From: a virus
Length of the DNA: 11,078 bases
Reading direction: 5' to 3' (one strand)
IMG/VR virus record: IMGVR_UViG_3300035698_006061
Span: 1-11,078 of that record
Below, piece after piece: positions 1,809 to 11,078 of this stretch. A program made the position numbers and the translations under genes. How positions within the stretch are numbered: the first letter of the stretch is position 1; each line of letters begins with the position of its first letter. The notes beneath the pieces are model-generated. The model searched no databases. It was not told the origin of the DNA and saw only the letters and a list, made by a program, of their open reading frames with translations.

Positions 1809-1888
1809 GTATACATATACATATAATCATACTACTATTACTAACTCCAAATCTCATACATTCAATCAATACTAATACATACACTATT

Positions 1889-1918
1889 AGCCCTCTAAGG
1901 GGCGAGTATGCGAGCCCC
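1889..1918. repeat. Iteron/hairpin unit 1: AGCCCTCTAAGGGGCGAGTATGCGAGCCCC
   Basis: GGGGC (1899-1903) pairs with GCCCC (1914-1918) around the 10-nt loop GAGTATGCGA. Alternatively, GCCC (1890-1893) can pair with GGGC (1900-1903). Contains GCGAG-TAT-GCGAG. Confidence 0.75.
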
Positions 1919-1960
1919 ATATATATTTACTTAACTAATTAATACTTTAAATAACTAATA

Positions 1961-1988
1961 AGCCTCTAAGGGCGAGTATGCGAGCCCT
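1961..1988. repeat. Iteron/hairpin unit 2: AGCCTCTAAGGGCGAGTATGCGAGCCCT
   Basis: Near-identical to unit 1 and 72 bp downstream. Each of the three C/G runs is one base shorter than in unit 1. The stem is AGGGC/GCCCT with the same 10-nt loop. Confidence 0.75.
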
Positions 1989-2160
1989 GTAGTACATTAT
2001 ACTAACTTTATTAATAAGATTGATTAGAGAGGCTCCTAGACCCCTTAGATATTCCTTTAGAGTAGAGGTGTATGGGAGTATGATATAAAGACTAAAGTAG
2101 AATTTCTATGAAATTCTAATATCAGGGGAATATATAAACACTGCTATATTTCTTTGTAAT

Positions 2161-2176
2161 AAAGGAAATATCCTTT
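2161..2176. promoter_or_regulatory. Perfect palindrome AAAGGA-AATA-TCCTTT (candidate operator)
   Basis: 6-bp arms and a 4-bp spacer, read directly. Related GGAAATAT / GGAATAT strings occur at about 1654 and 2126. Confidence 0.3.
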
Positions 2177-2302
2177 AATTTAATATTGTTAGTATTGTAC
2201 TATGGTAATAGAATTGGTTGGTGGTCAAAAGTGAGGAAAATTCAATCTAAACACTTACATAGTCATGTATATAGGTAAGGATATAAGTAATGATATAAGT
2301 AC

Positions 2303-2767
2303 TTAAGCAAAAGTAGCATCAAATATAATAGTGCCATCAAGTGTAGCTGTATCAATAGTATGATTAGTATAAGTAAGTACAAGTGTTTGTGTACCTTTGT
2401 CAGTAGTTACTGTTTGTTGAGTTATGTCTGTACCTGTATAAGTAATGGTAGATGTGGCAACTGAAACACCTTTTAATGACCATGTAATACTTTGCATGAA
2501 ACCACCTGAATATGTTGGTTCTGCCTTATCATATAAAGGTAAGTCAAATATTTCATTATTATTAGCATATTCTTTGTTAACTATGTCTTTATTTTTTGAT
2601 GGTTCTTCCTGTACTGTACCTTGTTTTATTGCAATAGAGTGGACAATATTCTTATCATCCATGTTATCAAAGTTACCTGCTCCTTGAGGTCTATGCATAC
2701 CATCTCGTTTCTTAGCATTGCTAGCTTTAAACATTGTCTTAAATGGGTCTTTAGGTGCTCGTGCCAT
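2303..2767 (-). CDS. Hypothetical beta-rich virion protein (candidate fibre/receptor-binding or tail-associated)
   Basis: Start placed at Met18 of the 171-aa track ORF (MARAPKDPFK...) because the upstream codons overlap the 57-aa gene. The C-terminal half is T/S/V/I-rich with alternating beta-like pattern (ITYTGTDITQQTVTTDKGTQTLVLTYTNHTIDTATLDGTIIFDATFA). Last gene of the structural block. Confidence 0.5.
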   Translation of the reverse strand: MARAPKDPFKTMFKASNAKKRDGMHRPQGAGNFDNMDDKNIVHSIAIKQGTVQEEPSKNKDIVNKEYANNNEIFDLPLYDKAEPTYSGGFMQSITWSLKGVSVATSTITYTGTDITQQTVTTDKGTQTLVLTYTNHTIDTATLDGTIIFDATFA

Positions 2768-2775
2768 AAGAATAA

Positions 2776-2949
2776 TTAAGCTGCAGAAGAAATTGTCTCG
2801 TAAGCTGAGCCAGTCCAAACTTTCAACTTGTTAGTTGTAGAATCATAGAAAACTGTACCTGTTTGAGGTGCTGCTGGTAAAGCTGTAGTAACCAATCTTG
2901 GTGCAACGAATGCGCTAGGCATTACAATATCACCGATAACTTCTGTCAT
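2776..2949 (-). CDS. 57-aa protein with a fibre-like motif (not in the supplied ORF track)
   Basis: Hand translation: MTEVIGDIVMPSAFVAPRLVTTALPAAPQTGTVFYDSTTNKLKVWTGSAYETISSAA. SD GGAGGT lies 6 nt upstream of the ATG at 2949; the TAA stop is at 2776-2778. Confidence 0.55.
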   Translation of the reverse strand: MTEVIGDIVMPSAFVAPRLVTTALPAAPQTGTVFYDSTTNKLKVWTGSAYETISSAA

Positions 2950-2988
2950 TATGCTACCTCCATTATAGCTTTAATTGTCTTAGAATTC

Positions 2989-2994
2989 AAAAAA
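2989..2994 (-). terminator. Oligo-T (T6) run immediately after the capsid gene stop
   Basis: The minus strand reads TAA-TGAGTAC-TTTTTT-GAATTC. Oligo-T tracts are the established archaeal intrinsic termination signal. There is no preceding hairpin, so it is not a bacterial rho-independent terminator. Confidence 0.35.
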
Positions 2995-3001
2995 GTACTC
3001 A

Positions 3002-3862
3002 TTATGCCTGAGTGTTCGTAATCTTGTAAATAGCTGCAGGGTCTGTAACCTGAACATGGCCAATTTCCCAAGAACGAACTGTGAAATTTATTCCTTTGTC
3101 TTCAACTACTGCACTTGTTAATGGTGTAGCTGCTCTCCATGTAGCTGCTCTTTGTCCAATAACTATTAATGCTTCATCTGCTGTTACACTTGTTGAGACA
3201 ATAATTGTTAATCCAGCAACTTGTCCAACTCTTCCGTTAGAAACAACATCTGCTGTCTTAAAACTTGGATTGTTGATAACTTTGCTGTTCATCATTAAAT
3301 TTCTGTAATCTTTTGGGCTTAATAAAAGGTATCCGTTCATTAAAGCATCGTAATTGCTCTCGAATAATGTTTGTTCACCTGTTAGAATGTCTCTGATAGG
3401 GTCTCTATCTGTTGCTGTTGCATCATCCCAGTTTGCTACTGCTGCTGCAGTTGAAATACCGTCAGCTCCTGATAATGTTGTATAAATATATGAATCTACT
3501 TGGCTAGCAATACTTCTTGCTACTCTTAAGATTGTTCTTGCTTGTACATCGATAGCATCTGTAAGCTTATCTTCTAAGAAAATAGTACCTTCTGCTGCGA
3601 ACTTAATGTTTTGTCCTTGTACTTTAGTCCAACTTGGGTCTACGTGTGGAAATGCAGCTCCTCTTGCTACTCCTTGTACACTAACTCCTTCACCTGTTGC
3701 AGATAATTCAGTTGCTGTTTCTCTGTAATAAGTTTCTGTCCATTTAGAACTAGATTGATTAAGCAATACTTGCTTCATTTTGAATTGTTTTAAAGCAAAT
3801 CCTTTAACTGCTCTTTCAACATTTTCTCCTCGAATATCTACCATTCCATTACTATCAGCCAT
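3002..3862 (-). CDS. Major capsid protein (HK97-fold type, no delta domain)
   Basis: 286-aa ORF directly after the scaffold-like and decoration-like genes. A/T/V/G-rich and Cys-free. SD-like GAGGGTGA upstream. Assigned from position, size and composition, not from a named motif. Confidence 0.7.
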   Translation of the reverse strand: MADSNGMVDIRGENVERAVKGFALKQFKMKQVLLNQSSSKWTETYYRETATELSATGEGVSVQGVARGAAFPHVDPSWTKVQGQNIKFAAEGTIFLEDKLTDAIDVQARTILRVARSIASQVDSYIYTTLSGADGISTAAAVANWDDATATDRDPIRDILTGEQTLFESNYDALMNGYLLLSPKDYRNLMMNSKVINNPSFKTADVVSNGRVGQVAGLTIIVSTSVTADEALIVIGQRAATWRAATPLTSAVVEDKGINFTVRSWEIGHVQVTDPAAIYKITNTQA

Positions 3863-3863
3863 C

Positions 3864-4259
3864 TTAACACTTCACCCTCACTAATATTGACTCACTGGTT
3901 GTTCCAGATTGTCTAGCGTATCCTACTACTTCTTTTAATCCTGCTGCTGTAGCGTCATCTGCTAATGTTACTGTGTTAACTCCAGAAATTTTAAGTGGGT
4001 CACCTGCTGTAACTGTAGCACTTACTACCATCTCGTAAATTCCATCGTTAGAATAAGTTAATTTTGTAGAATCATCAGCACTGTCTTTTTCCATTGTAGC
4101 AATTCCTAGTGGTATTTCACCATCTGCAGAACTAGCTGAACCTGTGTTAGGGTCTGTTAATTGTAAAAGAGTTCCTTTAGCAATTGTAACTCCTGCTGCT
4201 ACTGTACATTCTGGAAATCTGTCTTGTAGCTGAGTACTTAATGTTGCTTCGTTTGCCAT
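3864..4259 (-). CDS. Head decoration / capsid cement protein (DUF2190-like)
   Basis: 131 aa. Pattern AAGVTIAKGTLLQL...GIATME...GIYEMVV...VTAGDPLKISG...VVGYARQ...ILVRV matches the small beta-barrel DUF2190 pattern as I recall it. Sits immediately upstream of the MCP. Confidence 0.55.
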   Translation of the reverse strand: MANEATLSTQLQDRFPECTVAAGVTIAKGTLLQLTDPNTGSASSADGEIPLGIATMEKDSADDSTKLTYSNDGIYEMVVSATVTAGDPLKISGVNTVTLADDATAAGLKEVVGYARQSGTTSESILVRVKC

Positions 4260-4283
4260 TATAATTAAATTAAATAAAAATAG

Positions 4284-4290
4284 TTTATAA
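4284..4290 (-). promoter_or_regulatory. TATA/box-A-like element for the decoration-MCP unit
   Basis: The minus strand reads ccTTATAAA-24 nt-ATG(4259). No SD precedes the ATG. It has the same ccTTATAAA core as the site at 1200-1206. Confidence 0.4.
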
Positions 4291-4302
4291 GGATTGCTAT
4301 AA

Positions 4303-4467
4303 CTAATCCTCTTTTTCTTCTGTTTCGGGCTCTTCAGGGCACTTTTCTAGTGCTTTCTCAAAAGCTGCGATAACAATCTCGTGAATTGCAATACCTTCAG
4401 TGTGTGCTAAAAGTGCTGCTTTAGATGCTTCAAGTTCCCTTAGAATTGATGTTCTAGATAAATCCAT
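4303..4467 (-). CDS. 54-aa acidic helical protein (not in the supplied ORF track)
   Basis: Hand translation: MDLSRTSILRELEASKAALLAHTEGIAIHEIVIAAFEKALEKCPEEPETEEKED. Its ATG overlaps the end of the scaffold-like ORF by 14 nt. It fills an otherwise empty 190-nt gap. Confidence 0.45.
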   Translation of the reverse strand: MDLSRTSILRELEASKAALLAHTEGIAIHEIVIAAFEKALEKCPEEPETEEKED

Positions 4468-4783
4468 CTGCTGCTAATGGGTTTACTTCACCTAACATTA
4501 GTTTCTCTGCAAATTCTTCATCAGTTAAAGGTCTGTCTTCTTCTTTATTCATGCCTGCTTCTGCTCTACCACCTAGAATGTTTCTTGCTTGGAGTGCTTC
4601 TGTTCTATCGTTCTGTATTCTTAGTGCCTCTGAGGCTTTCTCAATCCTTTCAGCTGCATCGTTTGCGGCTTCAAGCACAGGAGTTGTCTGCTGCTGAATC
4701 CTTTCATTGCTATTTTCAACTGCTCTTTCTGCTGGTTGTTCAGTTTTTTGTGTTTCATTTTCTTCCATTTGTACTACCTCCAT
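4454..4783 (-). CDS. Scaffolding-like protein
   Basis: 109 aa, highly charged and predicted helical (E/Q/A/R-rich). Sits upstream of the decoration and MCP genes. Strong SD GGAGGT 7 nt upstream. No protease gene is present, consistent with a separate scaffold. Confidence 0.5.
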   Translation of the reverse strand: MEVVQMEENETQKTEQPAERAVENSNERIQQQTTPVLEAANDAAERIEKASEALRIQNDRTEALQARNILGGRAEAGMNKEEDRPLTDEEFAEKLMLGEVNPLAADGFI

Positions 4784-4800
4784 TATATTACTAATAAGTT

Positions 4801-6036
4801 TTAGAATAAGCCAAAGTTCAAAGCACTCTTACCGTATTCTTCTTGCTTTACTATCTTTGTATCCAGTCCATATTTAATTAATATTGCTAGTTCCTCTGGT
4901 GTTAGAATATTACCTGCGTTTCTCTTTCGGATTGCTTCAAATAATAATGTTCTTTCTTGGAACTCAGTATCATCTTCTGCATCACTTCTCTCTTGTCCAG
5001 ATTTGAAAGCCTCATCTCTAGCAGTTTGTTTCTCTGCGAAGGCTTGGTCTCTAGTATTACTTTCTTCTCTCAACCTATCAAACTTACTTGCTGTTGTTTC
5101 CTGTGATTCTGATACTAACCTCATGTTCTCGTTAGCTGTTACTAAATTGTTTTCCACTGTGCTTCTGAATTGTTTACCAAATGGCCATAGTGCTGGGTTA
5201 ACTATTGTGTTAATCTTTGTGAATTTAAGTGCTCCTTCAATAATCTGTATCTGTCCTTGCATTTGCTCTATAGCATCTGCTCTTGTTATCTCGTTGTTAT
5301 CAAATCTATCTAATATCTTAGATGTATAGAAGCTTGCTGCTGATGCACCATTGTCTGCTGCTAACCATTGTGTTAATGTACTACCACCAACATATGTACC
5401 TATTGCTACTGTAAGTTGTTTCTTTGTTAATCCAATGAATGTTTTCTTTGTTGCGATGATTGCTAGGTCTTTAGCTGCTTGTTGAATTGCTATTTTGTTT
5501 ACTTCTGCCTGTAAGTATGATGGGTTAATTCCTAACTTAGCTGCTTCTGCTGCTACTTTACTTGAACTTGCTGCTCCACCAGTTGTTATTAAACCTTTGA
5601 TTGCTGTAATTCCTGCACTTGTTGCTAATACTGCTGTAGCTGCTACTGCTGTACTTATTAGTGTTGTACCTATTACTTTTCTTGCTTCATCTGTATCACC
5701 TCCTCTAATATTTGCTCTACTCTCTGATACTGCATCTGCTCCAGCTCTTATTCCTTCTGTAAATGTAGTTTTTGGTTGGCTTAATGGTGCTGATAGTATA
5801 TCTAATGCTCTAGCTCCACCTCTCTTTAACTTATCTCCGAATGTTGGTGCCTCTGTAGTACTGATTGGTTGCTTAGATGCTCTAGATACAGCTGAACTTG
5901 GACTTCCACTAACGCTACCTGGACTGATTGCACTGCCTGCTTTAGGTGTACTAGTTGTAGTTGTCTTCTTTGCTCCTGGCATTTCTCCTCTTATAAATCT
6001 CTTTCCTATACTCTTAAGTTTACTTAAAATTCCCAT
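4801..6036 (-). CDS. 411-aa virion-associated protein (candidate internal/ejection or tape-measure-like protein)
   Basis: Start placed at Met21 (MGILSKLKS...), whose ATG overlaps the stop of the 50-aa gene (TAATG). It has an S/T/P-rich N-terminal third, a central A/T/G/I hydrophobic stretch (VIGTTLISTAVAATAVLATSAGITAIKGLITTGGAA) and a charged helical C-terminus. Confidence 0.55.
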   Translation of the reverse strand: MGILSKLKSIGKRFIRGEMPGAKKTTTTSTPKAGSAISPGSVSGSPSSAVSRASKQPISTTEAPTFGDKLKRGGARALDILSAPLSQPKTTFTEGIRAGADAVSESRANIRGGDTDEARKVIGTTLISTAVAATAVLATSAGITAIKGLITTGGAASSSKVAAEAAKLGINPSYLQAEVNKIAIQQAAKDLAIIATKKTFIGLTKKQLTVAIGTYVGGSTLTQWLAADNGASAASFYTSKILDRFDNNEITRADAIEQMQGQIQIIEGALKFTKINTIVNPALWPFGKQFRSTVENNLVTANENMRLVSESQETTASKFDRLREESNTRDQAFAEKQTARDEAFKSGQERSDAEDDTEFQERTLLFEAIRKRNAGNILTPEELAILIKYGLDTKIVKQEEYGKSALNFGLF

Positions 6037-6188: not shown

Positions 6189-7279
6189 TATTGTCCAACT
6201 CCTGCTTGTGTATCATTAGGCTGTGCTGCCTTCGTTGGTCCATCTTTAGCATTGTCGCTTAATAGTTCGTTTTCTAAACTTGCTGGGAATACTAAATCAA
6301 TATCCATACCTAGTTGTATACCAACTTGTTCCTCAATGAATGTTTGGTCTTCTTCTACACTCTGTTGGAATGCAAGATAAACTATCTTAGCACTTGCTTC
6401 TGTAAAGTTCTTTGAGTTTCCTACTATAATCTTTGGTGTTGCACATGCCTCGTAGAAAGAATCGTTAAGTGAATCAATCCATGTTAGTGGGTTTAATGTA
6501 CTATTAGGGCTTACGCTTAATTGTTCTGGAACTACTGCTCCCTTTGGTACATATAAGTTTTCATTTAACTTGTAAGCTTTATCCATCTTTGTTTTGAATG
6601 CTGTAATCTTAGCTGGTACATCTGTATCTAAGTGGAATATCATTCTTGGATATACATTTCTATGCATTACTATCTTGTAATCTGCTATTGCTTCATTTCT
6701 TGCTAAAATTATATCTTCTAGTTTTTCAACCACACTTACTCCATGAATCTCATCTGCTACTCTGTTACGACTTAAGTGAAATATTTCCTCTTGTTGGAAT
6801 GTTTTAGTACCACCATTTTTTGTTTTACTAACTTGTTCGTATTTCTGAATTATCCCTTTGTTGTTTGCCACAATCAGTATAGCTCCTGTATCAAGCACCT
6901 TTAGATTTATTAAATTGCCTTCTTCGTCTCTGATGATTTCTGCATAAGAATCTCCTCCAATCCACATAGTTCTAATCATATTTTCTATAATTGTATTAAA
7001 TGTATCTCTACCATAGCCTTTAATCTGGTCTATAACAAGTTGTGTATCTGTATCTGTTTCAATTCCTTTACCTATTGTCCATGTAGCTCTAGCATCAATT
7101 GTACTGTTTAGCTCTGGTATTTGTTTGTAGTATCCGAAATATTTTGACCAATTTGATTGTTGCCACCTTGTTTCTTTTTCCCCAGTTGCTGCATCTGTGT
7201 TCATTATAGATACACTGTAATCTGTCATCTGATTTGTTAAATCACTTATTACTGTATTTCCTATATCGTTATCTGCCAT
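6188..7279 (-). CDS. Portal protein (HK97/SPP1-type family)
   Basis: 363-aa ORF. Its size, the central segment EEIFHLSRNRVADEIHGVSVVEKLEDIILARNEA and the polar/acidic C-terminal tail are typical of phage portals. It lies in the head module with terL and the MCP. Confidence 0.8.
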   Translation of the reverse strand: MADNDIGNTVISDLTNQMTDYSVSIMNTDAATGEKETRWQQSNWSKYFGYYKQIPELNSTIDARATWTIGKGIETDTDTQLVIDQIKGYGRDTFNTIIENMIRTMWIGGDSYAEIIRDEEGNLINLKVLDTGAILIVANNKGIIQKYEQVSKTKNGGTKTFQQEEIFHLSRNRVADEIHGVSVVEKLEDIILARNEAIADYKIVMHRNVYPRMIFHLDTDVPAKITAFKTKMDKAYKLNENLYVPKGAVVPEQLSVSPNSTLNPLTWIDSLNDSFYEACATPKIIVGNSKNFTEASAKIVYLAFQQSVEEDQTFIEEQVGIQLGMDIDLVFPASLENELLSDNAKDGPTKAAQPNDTQAGVGQ

Positions 7280-9197: not shown

Positions 9198-10478
9198 TTA
9201 GTACACATATATGTTTAATGTCTGGTCTTTGACGCACCAAGCGCCTCTGACGATACCATCTGCAATATGCATATAATTACCAAAGTATTTAGTTCCCATA
9301 TTTGATTTCTCGTACTGCACTGACTTGAGCGACATGAAGATTTCTGGGTCATCAAGTAGTTTTATTTCACCACGTTCCATCAATGCTAGTAAGTTATTGT
9401 AGATGTCTTCCTTTAGTACTCTCTTTTTTCTCTTTTCATCGTAAGTTAGTGGTCTATTCATGTTATTTATAGCTACTGTCTTTCGTTTTGTCTCATCTGT
9501 AGTAAGTAATTGGTCTAGAACTCCGACTCCCATTCCACCATCATCAATGAATATTTGTCTAAAGTCATATGCTTTGTCTAAATTGATAATATGTCTTGTA
9601 GTTTCTGTAGTTAGAGTTTGTTTTGTAATTTGATTCTCTACTTGTTCTATAGCTTTTGGGTTTGTACGGTCAAATACTTCAAAAGTACTTTCATCTTTTC
9701 CCATTCTTGCTATGTCCACTCCTAAGTAGTAACGCTTTCCTTGTTGTATATAACCTCTACGCTTCAAACACATACATCTTTTGATTAAATCATCTGGGAA
9801 AACTTGTCTTAATGAATCTATAAAGGCTCCTTCATATTCTTGAGCATACTGAGTTACTGTCATTCTTCCTCTTTCTCTAGCTAAATGCTCTAATGCCTTC
9901 TCTTTCTGTAATTGTGTCCAACTATCTGTGATTTCTCTCTCATTTATCACTGTTTCACTACTTATTTGGAAGTTAGTAAAGTTTGTATCGTGAAATGCTC
10001 TGTGAAAGAAGCCTGAATTTCCATGTGGGGTTGATAATAGTACAATATCTCCACCTGTTGTAAGTAACATTGGTGTAATTGCTTCCCATACTAGTTCTGG
10101 TACAAAGGCTGCCTCATCTGCATATAGTCTACTTACTGTGAAACCTCTGATACCATGGCCATCTAAGCCCGTAGGAAGGCATCTAATGACACTTTTGTTG
10201 TTTAACTTGACCTTTGATAGTGTTGGTTTGTCTTTTCCTTTCATTATGTATGATTTATAGTTGTCTTGTAAGTACCACATAGTCTTTTGGAATAACTCTT
10301 GTGCTTGTCTTTCTACAGAAGCTATGATTAAAATGCTGGAACCTGGGTTCAAGGCGGCATAATCAGCTGCATCTTTCGCTATTACAGTTGACTTGCCTAC
10401 CTGTCGCCCTGAGCAAAGAACAATATTGCCTTTTGTTTCTAGGACTTTCTCTTGCCATTTATCTAATTTGATTTTCAT
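9198..10478 (-). CDS. terL: Terminase large subunit (packaging ATPase + nuclease)
   Basis: 426 aa. Deviant Walker A LCSGRQVGKST (compare T4 gp17 SRQLGKT). Walker B with catalytic Glu: RLYADEAAF. C-terminal RNase-H-like acidic motifs: YLGVDIARMGKDES and IFIDDGGMGVG. Confidence 0.92.
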   Translation of the reverse strand: MKIKLDKWQEKVLETKGNIVLCSGRQVGKSTVIAKDAADYAALNPGSSILIIASVERQAQELFQKTMWYLQDNYKSYIMKGKDKPTLSKVKLNNKSVIRCLPTGLDGHGIRGFTVSRLYADEAAFVPELVWEAITPMLLTTGGDIVLLSTPHGNSGFFHRAFHDTNFTNFQISSETVINEREITDSWTQLQKEKALEHLARERGRMTVTQYAQEYEGAFIDSLRQVFPDDLIKRCMCLKRRGYIQQGKRYYLGVDIARMGKDESTFEVFDRTNPKAIEQVENQITKQTLTTETTRHIINLDKAYDFRQIFIDDGGMGVGVLDQLLTTDETKRKTVAINNMNRPLTYDEKRKKRVLKEDIYNNLLALMERGEIKLLDDPEIFMSLKSVQYEKSNMGTKYFGNYMHIADGIVRGAWCVKDQTLNIYVY

Positions 10479-10487
10479 GAGTATGAA

Positions 10488-10505
10488 GTCCCCTTCAATG
10501 GGGAC
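10488..10505. repeat. Hairpin repeat H2: GTCCCC-TTCAAT-GGGGAC
   Basis: 6-bp GC-rich stem. The 17-nt string tatgaagtccccttcaa (10482-10498) is identical to 10651-10667. Confidence 0.85.
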
Positions 10506-10532
10506 AAATTGATTTAGTAGACTTCTCTACAA

Positions 10533-10597
10533 TACACACGGCAGGATTCGAACCTGCAATAGTCCTACGGGAATGACCCGTCCAGTTCCTCGTGTGT
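10533..10597 (-). ncRNA. tRNA-like element: perfect acceptor stem and T-arm, truncated core
   Basis: Minus strand: ACACACG-N33-GCAGG-TTCGAAT-CCTGC-CGTGTGT-A. It has a 7-bp acceptor stem, a canonical 5-bp T-stem and a GTTCGAATC T-loop. Only 33 nt lie where positions 8-48 need about 41. The core folds either as ACGGG-TCATT-CCCGT (CAT centred in a too-small loop) or as GGAA-N12-TTCC (D-arm-like), not both. No encoded CCA. Confidence 0.5.
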
Positions 10598-10656
10598 AAT
10601 CAATGAGGGCTTTAAGCTTCCATTTACGGAAGTCCCACACCCTCGATGACTATGAA

Positions 10657-10679
10657 GTCCCCTTCAAAAAAATGGGGAC
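10657..10679 (-). terminator. Hairpin repeat H1 with an internal T7 run: GTCCCC-ATTTTTTTGAA-GGGGAC (minus strand)
   Basis: Begins 8 nt after the stop of the 48-aa gene. T7 is a strong archaeal-type oligo-T terminator. The T-run lies in the loop, not after the stem, so it is atypical for a bacterial intrinsic terminator. Confidence 0.4.
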
Positions 10680-10686
10680 GATTAAT

Positions 10687-10833
10687 TTAATCTGTTTTGT
10701 TTGTGTACTTGTGCACTAGTTCTTTTGCAATAGCATATCTCTTTAAAGAGTCGTTTAATCCTACTTCAAAGAATTTTACTGTCACAAGTATCTCTTTTAC
10801 AGTTGTTCTAAGCTGTTTTTCAATTCTGTCCAT
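10687..10833 (-). CDS. 48-aa hypothetical protein (not in the supplied ORF track)
   Basis: Hand translation: MDRIEKQLRTTVKEILVTVKFFEVGLNDSLKRYAIAKELVHKYTNKTD. A strong SD GGGAGGTGA lies immediately upstream of the ATG at 10833. Its RBS and first 6 codons lie inside the 74-bp repeat. Confidence 0.5.
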   Translation of the reverse strand: MDRIEKQLRTTVKEILVTVKFFEVGLNDSLKRYAIAKELVHKYTNKTD

Positions 10834-10887
10834 GTTCACCTCCCTTTTTTAATGTATCTTGGAAGTTTGATAATCTTCTAGCTTCTC
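10814..10887. repeat. 74-bp perfect direct repeat, copy B
   Basis: Identical to 119-192. The two copies lie 256 bp apart on the circle and bracket the 72-aa gene. Confidence 0.95.
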
Positions 10888-11067
10888 CTTCTTTAATTTA
10901 TTAAGTGATTCGCTTAATGTTTTCATAGCATCTAGACTATGTTCTAACATTACTATAGCAGAAATTGTTCTTCCAATCCATCCACCTATAATACATGTTG
11001 GTTTGCATCCTCCAGCGTGTAGTGGAAGTCTATGGCAGTATTCGCATGGTTTAGTTATTTCTTTCAT
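10849..11067 (-). CDS. 72-aa Cys-rich protein (CxxC...CxxxC) with a hydrophobic segment and a helical tail
   Basis: MKEITKPCEYCHRLPLHAGGCKPTCIIGGWIGRTISAIVML...KLKKEKLEDYQTSKIH. It has no SD of its own. Its ATG lies inside a 12-codon uORF that starts at the repeat-borne ATG (position 138, copy A). The last 13 codons are encoded by repeat copy B. Confidence 0.55.
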   Translation of the reverse strand: MKEITKPCEYCHRLPLHAGGCKPTCIIGGWIGRTISAIVMLEHSLDAMKTLSESLNKLKKEKLEDYQTSKIH

Positions 11068-11078
11068 TTTGTTTTTCA
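10952..11078. repeat. Terminal overlap, copy B (identical to 1-127)
   Basis: Offset of 10951 between the copies. The 127-bp length matches a common de Bruijn k-mer, so it signals circular closure of the assembly rather than proving a physical terminal repeat. Confidence 0.95.

Follow-up and report, generated by a model that had tools for sequence, protein, structure and literature searches.

In plant mitochondria, t-elements, which consist of an acceptor stem and a T arm, are cleaved by RNase P and RNase Z and set the ends of mRNAs and rRNAs (PMC1920247). According to PMC4326828, which cites Holzle et al. 2008 and 2012, the t-elements of Haloferax volcanii undergo both cleavages and determine transcript ends as well. 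The 5' cut is made by RNase P and the 3' cut by RNase Z, and the freed element may gain non-templated C or A residues (PMC1920247, PMC4326828). Following the definition in PMC1920247, a t-element combines an acceptor-like stem with a T arm carrying GGTTCRANYCC, and the rest of the cloverleaf is non-canonical or missing. We found this combination in a virus sequence, IMG/VR record IMGVR_UViG_3300035698_006061, which was analysed over a stretch of 11,078 nucleotides (nt) that we call the window. The element lies on the minus strand, in a noncoding block upstream of the large terminase gene terL. Our tentative reading, held with somewhat less than even confidence, is that it represents a viral t-element, i.e. 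a tRNA-derived processing module in a polycistronic transcript upstream of terL. Like t-elements it would be embedded in a longer transcript beside gene ends. Unlike them it belongs to a virus of prokaryotes, where it forms part of a mobile accessory cassette common to unrelated viruses; its core is hypervariable (12–52 nt), and its acceptor sequence and flanks are unusually conserved.

The first-pass annotation of this DNA had reported a tRNA-like element at 10597..10533 of the minus strand with a 7/7-bp acceptor stem, a T arm and a core 8 nt too short for a cloverleaf, all of which can be read directly. Every acceptor pair of the window copy is a Watson-Crick pair, beginning with A1-U72, and the core comprises 33 nt compared to about 41 nt in a standard tRNA. 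The trailer reads UUG and CCA is not encoded. The hairpin ACGGG-TCATT-CCCGT with its central CAT, also described there, is present at 10581-10567. A chance origin had been called very unlikely, and a shuffling control agreed: a pattern of a 7-bp Watson-Crick acceptor, a 5-bp Watson-Crick T stem, a TTCRANN loop and a core of 10–60 nt occurred once in the window and in none of 2000 dinucleotide-preserving window shuffles. RNAfold predicted a fold of acceptor stem, T arm and central hairpin for the element with –24.1 kcal/mol (z=–2.25).

We also assessed whether the element qualifies as a tRNA. ARAGORN reported no tRNA and no tmRNA in the window (0 of each), and Rfam at gathering thresholds gave no match. 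With relaxed Rfam settings the tRNA family RF00005 matched 10533-10597 on the minus strand at 25.7 bits, compared to a gathering score of 29 (E=0.0043 in a 551-nt search), and the alignment reached the model ends but covered the acceptor stem and T arm only. The 7-bp acceptor with its discriminator and a T arm with G53-C61 and a UUCRANY loop are thus in place, whereas a D arm, an anticodon arm with a 7-nt loop and a score above the detector thresholds are lacking. In summary, the element is a real, non-random structure and not a canonical tRNA.

Homologues were collected by searches with the motif of the upstream hairpin H1 (hairpins H1 to H4 are given in Table 1) and with a 15-mer of the leader, which returned mostly chance matches that were filtered afterwards; compared contigs are labelled L001 and so forth. 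A homologous element in the same noncoding block is found in at least 13 related or co-occurring virus contigs. The motif searches detected the block in relatives of 10–13 kb (L064, L077, L095, L101, L111, L140, L202 and L217), and further copies of the element are present in L232, L199, L027, L028/L030 and L048. By tblastn the 10–13 kb contigs belong to the virus family of the window, and the terL, portal and major capsid proteins of the relatives are 25–63% identical to those of the window. The blocks share one layout: a stop cluster, H1, UCAUAGUCAU, H2, a leader ending in UCAUUGAUU, the element, AUUG, more hairpins and UUUAUAAUC-AUG. A covariance model (CM R1) built from nine copies scored the window at 79.9 bits and the non-seed copies of L140 and L199 at 61.6 and 57.3 bits, with weaker, divergent matches in L232 (acceptor CCCCCU/AGGGGG) and in L048 (GCAAGCG/CGCTTGC, located right after an H1 hairpin). 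The exact 24-mer covering the T arm and the 3' acceptor strand occurs in a phage we term class A (contigs L001, L003, L025, L031 and L032), in L028/L030 and L027, and also in L033, L002, L029, L034 and L035. In class A, which has no protein in common with the window, the element stands at the head of a tRNA-Met/Thr/Pro array.

Acceptor stem and T arm persist in every copy, while the cores cannot be aligned and range from 12 nt in L111 to 52 nt in L202. Whether related genomes conserve the pairing was a check proposed along with the original description, and they do: among 10 distinct top halves standard pairs make up 97.5% of cells, and nine of the twelve pairs have changed on both sides. None of 500 shuffles of this set, which was also run in a 7-row version, reached any of the five measures applied, and slid registers of the top-half alignment are merely 31–51% paired. 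Acceptor 5' strands in homologues include GCACACG, GCAAGCG and CCCCCCU, each accompanied by the matching 3' strand, and the T stem covaries in the same manner (GCAGG/CCUGC, UAGGG/CCCUA, UUAAG/CUUGA, GUGGG/CCUAC, GUAGG/CCUGC). G53-C61 is invariant, and U54 and A58 are kept. G.U pairs occur at 1-72 in L027, at 50-64 in L064 and L140 and at 51-63 in L111, on the gene-sense strand only; read from the opposite strand, these pairs would become A.C mismatches, so it is the sense RNA that is constrained. As ARAGORN and Rfam accepted no homologue as a tRNA, the earlier conclusion that the element is not a canonical tRNA extends from the window copy to all others. On the comparative evidence, selection acts on the acceptor/T-arm half only: with proteins 25–63% identical and cores scrambled, neutral decay would not have spared the twelve pairs.

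The core of the window copy has no such history. Its GGG/CCC-CAU hairpin is lineage-specific and not kept in homologues, and a search of viral contigs for the pattern GGGTCATTCCC..GGTTCGAATCC gave only chance matches in or beside tRNA arrays of large phage contigs, indicating that the core hairpin lacks wider conservation. Most homologues begin with G1-C72 (version GCAGGTTCGAATCCTGCCGTGTGC), A1-U72 being confined to the window-type copy. A resemblance to archaeal initiator tRNA had been proposed on account of these two features; since both are lineage-specific, the comparison indicates that the likeness is coincidental, and we dropped it.

Several observations point to the source of the element. 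Its acceptor stem and T arm are identical to those of a bona fide phage tRNA-Val within an array of eight tRNAs (L033), the relative L017 carries a true tRNA-Met upstream of terL, a D arm is still present in L064 and L095, and UCAU recurs in the cores of the window, L064, L202 and L232. Judging from these sequences, descent from a phage tRNA, possibly tRNA-Met, is likely. Together, the comparisons show tRNA ancestry, loss of tRNA status, conservation and covariation of the top half and an accessory, mosaic distribution at the level of sequence; transcription, both cleavages and an effect on expression are what we infer from this pattern.

According to our favoured reading, a phage tRNA gene would have been stripped of the anticodon arm and in most cases of the D arm, i.e. 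of its decoding half, and the coaxial acceptor-stem/T-arm minihelix would have been retained under selection. The element would be transcribed from the minus strand within a polycistronic RNA leading from small upstream open reading frames (ORFs) into terL. Host RNase P would cut at the 5' end, between U10598 and A10597, and tRNase Z after discriminator A10533; the freed RNA of about 65 nt would possibly be tailed by CCA-adding enzyme. The products would be an upstream RNA ending in H2 and a terL mRNA starting with H3 and H4. The block of H1, H2, element and H3 would be an accessory noncoding cassette that came between the small ORF p50 and terL by recombination at a 'hairpin-UCAUANUC-AUG' module and is exchanged among co-occurring viruses. 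RNase P, tRNase Z and CCA-adding enzyme accept acceptor/T-arm minihelices. As the conserved part is exactly what these enzymes need, the pattern favours a processing signal. The element shares its strand with p50 and terL, all homologues with examined flanks are co-oriented with their immediate neighbours, and most of them, with the exception of L111, are co-oriented with the structural genes. Its position is an operon junction, with the stop cluster and H1 closing the upstream operon and the start of the next gene on the other side. Since CCA is encoded neither here nor in the true tRNAs of class A, a tRNase Z/CCA pathway would be expected in the host.

An RNase P/RNase Z signal that releases the terL mRNA had been among the roles suggested beforehand. 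Its first half best fits the comparative pattern, namely conservation of the enzyme-recognised half, co-orientation, the operon junction and the likeness to t-elements. The second half does not hold as a general role: in relatives the block lies 1.2–2.3 kb upstream of terL, ahead of small ORFs, and it is missing from the closest ones. No element is present in the nearest terL relatives, which are L004/L228 (69% identity) and L039, L040 and L042 (75%). In L004/L228 the p50 homologue terminates at a stop codon that overlaps the ATG of terL, and along its full 10.7 kb the contig shows neither a covariance model match nor a tRNA. The closest portal relatives (L226–L233, 58–70% identity) also lack it, save for the divergent copy in L232. 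A family-wide feature of the terL junction was rejected for this reason.

Several points weigh against a t-element. The closest relatives do without the element, so on this comparison it is dispensable. The outer stem of H2 reaches position –1, and such predicted pairing would be unfavourable for bacterial RNase P unless H2 breathes. The acceptor sequence (G/A)CACACG and the flanks UCAUUGAUU and AUUG are kept in most copies, although a pure processing signal needs structure only; this hints at an extra constraint, be it a specific protein, tRNA identity or a DNA-level site. The pair counts are biased towards the assumed structure, as the top halves were hand-trimmed by it, and with several copies 100% identical the independent lineages are few (about 10 distinct sequences). 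Moreover, an accessory, horizontally shared noncoding RNA cassette fits an independent decoy function equally well.

If the t-element reading is true, t-element-type processing, so far seen in plant mitochondria and a haloarchaeon, would be used by viruses of prokaryotes too, and phage tRNA genes could be reduced to the part recognised by RNases and then traded as a noncoding cassette. It would offer a testable handle on expression from long transcripts in 10–13 kb viruses with terL, portal and HK97-type genes. In that case 'top-half-only' tRNA relics, which escape standard tRNA finders and Rfam, would form a class of their own and could be searched for systematically. Our literature searches did not find conserved top-half tRNA relics in prokaryotic viruses or phage minihelix elements described. 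T-elements and tRNA punctuation are known kinds of signal; the viral setting, the hypervariable core and the behaviour as a mobile cassette are new.

The mobility of the block is visible at its borders. It is located between two copies of the gene-start module, H4 with its tail being a second copy of H1 and its tail (2 matches, 0 expected), so that its edges form a 29–34-nt direct repeat; an arrangement of this kind is characteristic of a block inserted or duplicated through recombination at that module. The upstream side of the window matches L028/L030 (84% over 164 nt), and the downstream 29 nt match class A (100%). The 105 nt that are 100% identical between unrelated viruses (Table 1) would mark recombination or same-host co-infection within one community. 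In L026 the class A left flank is joined to the L028/L030 right flank exactly at the element and two segments of L031 are missing; this contig may be a true recombinant or an assembly chimera at the shared repeat. A second, partial copy of the 3' end of the element, CCTGCCGTGTGCATTGGGG / CCUGCCGUGUGCAUUGGGG, lies at about 3137-3160 of L140 on the minus strand. In L232 a collapsed remnant at 3805-3845, consisting of the leader CCUUAUUGAUU, GCA..GUGC and AUU, is found about 80 nt downstream of the divergent full copy.

A scan of 185,579 species genomes with the 24-mer in its window version detected neither an integrated copy nor a plausible host tRNA. Among tRNAs it matched only tRNA-Arg(CCG) in two proteobacterial metagenome-assembled genomes (MAGs), one of them from Nannocystaceae, presumably a high-G+C group, compared to 35% G+C in the window. 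We read the mosaic flanks, on sequence grounds, as recombination at conserved noncoding sequence and not as integrase-mediated attachment, because the scanned ORFs yielded no recombinase, the 5' acceptor strand is retained with covariation, the genome scan gave neither an integrated copy nor a plausible host tRNA, and L026 is possibly chimeric.

Alternatively, the element could be a stable tRNA mimic or decoy, excised and possibly CCA-tailed, which titrates a host factor binding tRNA ends or the tRNA elbow while cutting of the mRNA is incidental; conceivable targets are a toxin or defence enzyme directed at the acceptor end or CCA, an aminoacyl-tRNA synthetase, the CCA-adding enzyme or a modification enzyme. 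We consider this unlikely, but it would account for an accessory element shared at 100% identity between unrelated viruses, as is typical of auxiliary or counter-defence genes, and for a cassette that contains no ORF, so that the RNA is its sole payload. The retention of the acceptor sequence beyond its pairing and the independent minihelices with 16-nt cores in unrelated 35–45 kb phage contigs point the same way. The acceptor sequence is wholly replaced in L232 and L048, which argues against strict sequence identity, a decoy has no known candidate target, and the constant position at operon junctions is a direct prediction of the processing model. A more specific version, to which we give somewhat less credit again, regards the top half as the payload of a mobile noncoding cassette travelling among unrelated viruses of one community, namely 10–13 kb HK97-type viruses, possibly satellites, and a larger tRNA-carrying phage. 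The RNA would be excised, CCA-tailed and act as a decoy for a factor acting on tRNA acceptor ends, e.g. a tRNA-end-modifying defence toxin. If true, it would be an RNA-only counter-defence or hijacking gene and more than a cleavage signal. We regard it as improbable that the element is a neutral relic, i.e. a tRNA pseudogene decaying in the spacer whose conservation reflects recent descent or transfer. It is truncated, cannot be called as a tRNA and is dispensable in the closest relatives, and copies that are 100% identical fit very recent transfer. Neutral decay would, however, wear helices as fast as the core, while here the twelve pairs are kept and mostly compensated as cores are scrambled and resized among proteins of 25–63% identity, and the tRNA-specific G53-C61, U54 and A58 persist.

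A DNA-level role, either as an att-like or crossover site or as a hot spot of homologous recombination used for cassette exchange or tRNA-gene integration, seems to us slightly more improbable still. As at tRNA-gene att sites, a tRNA 3' half is kept in a mobile genome with mosaic junctions at its edges (window, L028/L030, class A and L026), and the partial 3' duplicate CCTGCCGTGTGCATTGGGG in L140, the direct repeat bounding the block and a 74-nt duplication flanking another cassette of the same genome agree with such a site. Unlike at att sites, the ORFs scanned in the 10.95-kb genome gave no recognisable integrase or recombinase, the 5' acceptor strand, which an att core does not need, is present and covaries, and the scan of species genomes with the 24-mer returned no plausible attB or integrated copy, the tRNA-Arg(CCG) matches in MAGs being the only ones to tRNAs. 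Compensatory changes and strand-specific G.U pairs indicate a constraint on RNA, the junction in L026 is possibly an assembly artefact at the shared repeat, and recombination at conserved sequence is compatible with an RNA function and not an alternative to it. The proposal that a degenerated host tRNA copy serves as an att site is hence retained as to tRNA origin and finds no support as to attachment. The flank combinations U_A/U_B/D_A/D_B were also considered as attP/attB and this was rejected, as the genome is circular, no integrase was recognised and the 'attL-like' L026 is otherwise rearranged and maybe chimeric. An aberrant D-armless tRNA decoding AUG through a CAU anticodon is close to refuted. 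CAU is indeed located at the centre of the hairpin loop, UCAU also occurs in the cores of L064, L202 and L232, and L017 has a real tRNA-Met upstream of terL. The loop comprises 5 nt, and opening one pair would extend it to 7 nt with G32 and U37; most homologues have no such hairpin or a different one, their cores can be as short as 12 nt, and ARAGORN and the Rfam tRNA model at its gathering score reject every copy.

Beyond t-elements, tRNA-shaped cleavage signals are known to separate mRNAs in animal mitochondria and in bacterial and phage operons that mix tRNAs and mRNAs, the so-called tRNA punctuation. The element of L111, which ends 9 nt before an AUG, resembles a mitochondrial gene junction; unlike the punctuating tRNAs, which also decode, the viral element cannot. 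The mascRNA of MALAT1/MEN-beta and the tRNA-like RNAs of murine gammaherpesvirus 68 are non-decoding, excised by RNase P and RNase Z, CCA-tailed and not aminoacylated. They have in common with our element that they are tRNA-like structures without decoding function, but they belong to eukaryotic or eukaryotic-virus systems, keep a cloverleaf-like fold and show no sequence relationship to it.

The tRNA-like domains of tmRNA and of the bacterial Y RNA-like YrlA mimic the elbow of acceptor stem and T arm without an anticodon arm, as does the viral element. A tmRNA was rejected, as ARAGORN found none, a tag ORF is lacking and the two acceptor strands are just 33 nt apart. YrlA (RF02553) was also rejected: it reached 14.8 bits compared to a gathering score of 69 (E=4), no Ro60/TROVE match was found among 20 window ORFs, and the strand topology of YrlA is permuted around a long Ro-binding stem. 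The scan of species genomes returned the window 24-mer in one further fragment (L023:1090-1150, from a fecal Eubacteriales MAG), located upstream of an SPFH-domain gene and RtcB. It probably belongs to an RNA-repair operon as a Y-RNA-like (YrlA-type) RNA and has no relation to the viral element.

Modular shuffling in T4-type phages is mediated by PeSL cassettes, which are promoter/stem-loop repeats. In both cases short conserved gene-start modules flank cassettes as recombination points, here the 'hairpin + UCAUANUC + AUG' on both sides of the block. The payload is a tRNA-like RNA and not an ORF, and no promoter was identified in the module. Within the virus family the module consists of a GC-rich hairpin, U(C/U)AUA(N)UC and AUG and is also found in relatives, with one or two copies per genome (e.g. 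window 10476-10505, L229:126, L230:2074). The G-rich 3' arm of its hairpin may double as a ribosome-binding site, and the predicted hairpin could control translation or mark a processing site.

Table 1. Features of the element, the surrounding noncoding block and the adjacent genes in the window.
Feature	Position	Strand	Remarks
tRNA-derived top-half element (t-element-like)	10533..10597	-	acceptor stem, 33-nt non-canonical core, T arm, discriminator A
Acceptor stem 5' strand ACACACG (A1)	10591..10597	-	7/7 pairs with 10534-10540
Core, 33 nt, AGGAACTGGACGGGTCATTCCCGTAGGACTATT	10558..10590	-	holds hairpin ACGGG-UCAUU-CCCGU (10567-10581)
T arm GCAGG-UUCGAAU-CCUGC	10541..10557	-	carries GGTTCGAATCC consensus
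Acceptor 3' strand CGUGUGU (10534-10540) and discriminator A (10533)	10533..10540	-	sequence read
Block start: stop-rich TTAAATTAAT, hairpin H1, tail TTCATAGTCAT	10646..10690	-	left copy of duplicated hairpin module
Hairpin H1 GTCCCC-ATTTTTTTGAA-GGGGAC	10657-10679	-	still a hairpin, of other sequence, in L217, L202 and L140
Hairpin H2	10598..10651	-	outer stem AGUCA/UGAUU, inner stem GAGGG/CCCUC, variable apex
Hairpin H3 GUAGA-GAAG-UCUAC	10517..10530	-	just 3' of the element; inside the 105 nt identical to class A phage
Hairpin H4 GTCCCC-ATTGAA-GGGGAC (10488-10505), tail TTCATACTC, terL ATG (10476-10478)	10476..10505	-	right module copy
Segment of 105 nt, 100% identical to class A phage	10504..10608	-	sequence comparison with L001, L003, L031 and L032
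Large terminase gene terL	9198..10478	-	phrog_2 7e-44, PF03237; directly downstream of block
Small ORF p50 (50 aa)	10687..10839	-	directly upstream of block; stop codon within the TTAAATTAAT of the block

The element is located in a 208-nt spacer with p50 on one side and terL on the other. This spacer is unusually structured (–81.3 kcal/mol, z=–5.4) and contains, in order, H1 with the tail TTCATAGTCAT, H2, the element, H3, H4 with its tail and the terL ATG. Every homologous block has H2, with another apex and with compensatory changes in its stem (GAGG/CCUC, AAGG/CCUU, GAGA/UCUC). H1, H2 and the downstream structured RNA matched no Rfam family, including tmRNA, GOLLD, ROOL and ribozymes. Rfam at gathering thresholds gave nothing in eight homologous genomes, and a relaxed Rfam search of the flanks and of L027, L030, L031, L002 and L017 returned just true tRNAs and the sub-threshold tRNA match. 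Comparison of the block, in the window version and the L077 version, with 50,697 isolate phage genomes by blastn gave no relevant match. A scan for sigma-70 promoters and intrinsic terminators found no more than in shuffles, and none that separates the element from p50 or terL.

Positions 1-127 of the window are exactly identical to 10952-11078, and this 127-nt terminal overlap indicates a complete circular genome of about 10,951 bp, which could represent an ultra-small virus or a satellite. All genes are located on the minus strand. Downstream of terL we recognised genes for an SNase-like nuclease, a portal protein, a scaffold and a capsid protein of the HK97 type. Among 20 window ORFs scanned with Pfam and PHROGs, none matched a tail, replication or integrase function, and several stayed unannotated. 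The terL family is very large, with 2644 relatives at E<1e-60; among the matches listed, the longest contigs are mostly about 1.5–13 kb and a single one exceeds 13.4 kb (16.8 kb). The best terL match is merely 75% identical, suggesting that the lineage of the window is otherwise unsampled.

During the analysis of the remaining sequence we noticed a 74-nt exact direct repeat (119-192 and 10814-10887), which contains an ORF 3' end, a ribosome-binding site and the start of the p50 ORF. It flanks a 72-aa CxxC ORF (10849-11067), which looks like a cassette inserted or duplicated through recombination. An AT-rich noncoding zone with 26% G+C (about 1310-1500 and 2270-2300) contains TA/ATA microsatellites, overlapping palindromes and 12-nt tandem repeats and is a candidate replication origin or regulatory region.

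Further observations concern the other carriers. Unrelated phage contigs of 35–45 kb (L002:4432-4484, L029:3488-3540, L034 and L035) contain a 48-nt minihelix with a 16-nt core, ACACACG-CUUUGUGGAAAGUUAA-T arm-CGUGUGU-A. It sits between two co-oriented genes in a spacer of about 460 nt with other hairpins, and the 210-aa product encoded downstream looks scaffold-like by eye. In L034 A3 is changed to G and the pair is kept as G.U. This example suggests a wider spread of top-half relics, and top-half-only tRNA relics may be widespread in phages. The class A contig L031 encodes a 1081-aa terminase large subunit split by an intein (1841-5086), adjoined by a ParB-like gene and a C5 cytosine methylase. 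At 6560-6680 the same contig carries a repeated motif, GACACUGGGAAAGACUAG(R)AUGUGGG followed by a variable hairpin and CCCACAUUUUAUAAUC-AUGGAAA, ahead of successive small ORFs, some of them encoding 23-aa hydrophobic peptides. This motif, which has no Rfam match, is also located downstream of the element in L064, L077, L101, L140, L202 and L217, and it occurs twice in L064, L140 and L202.

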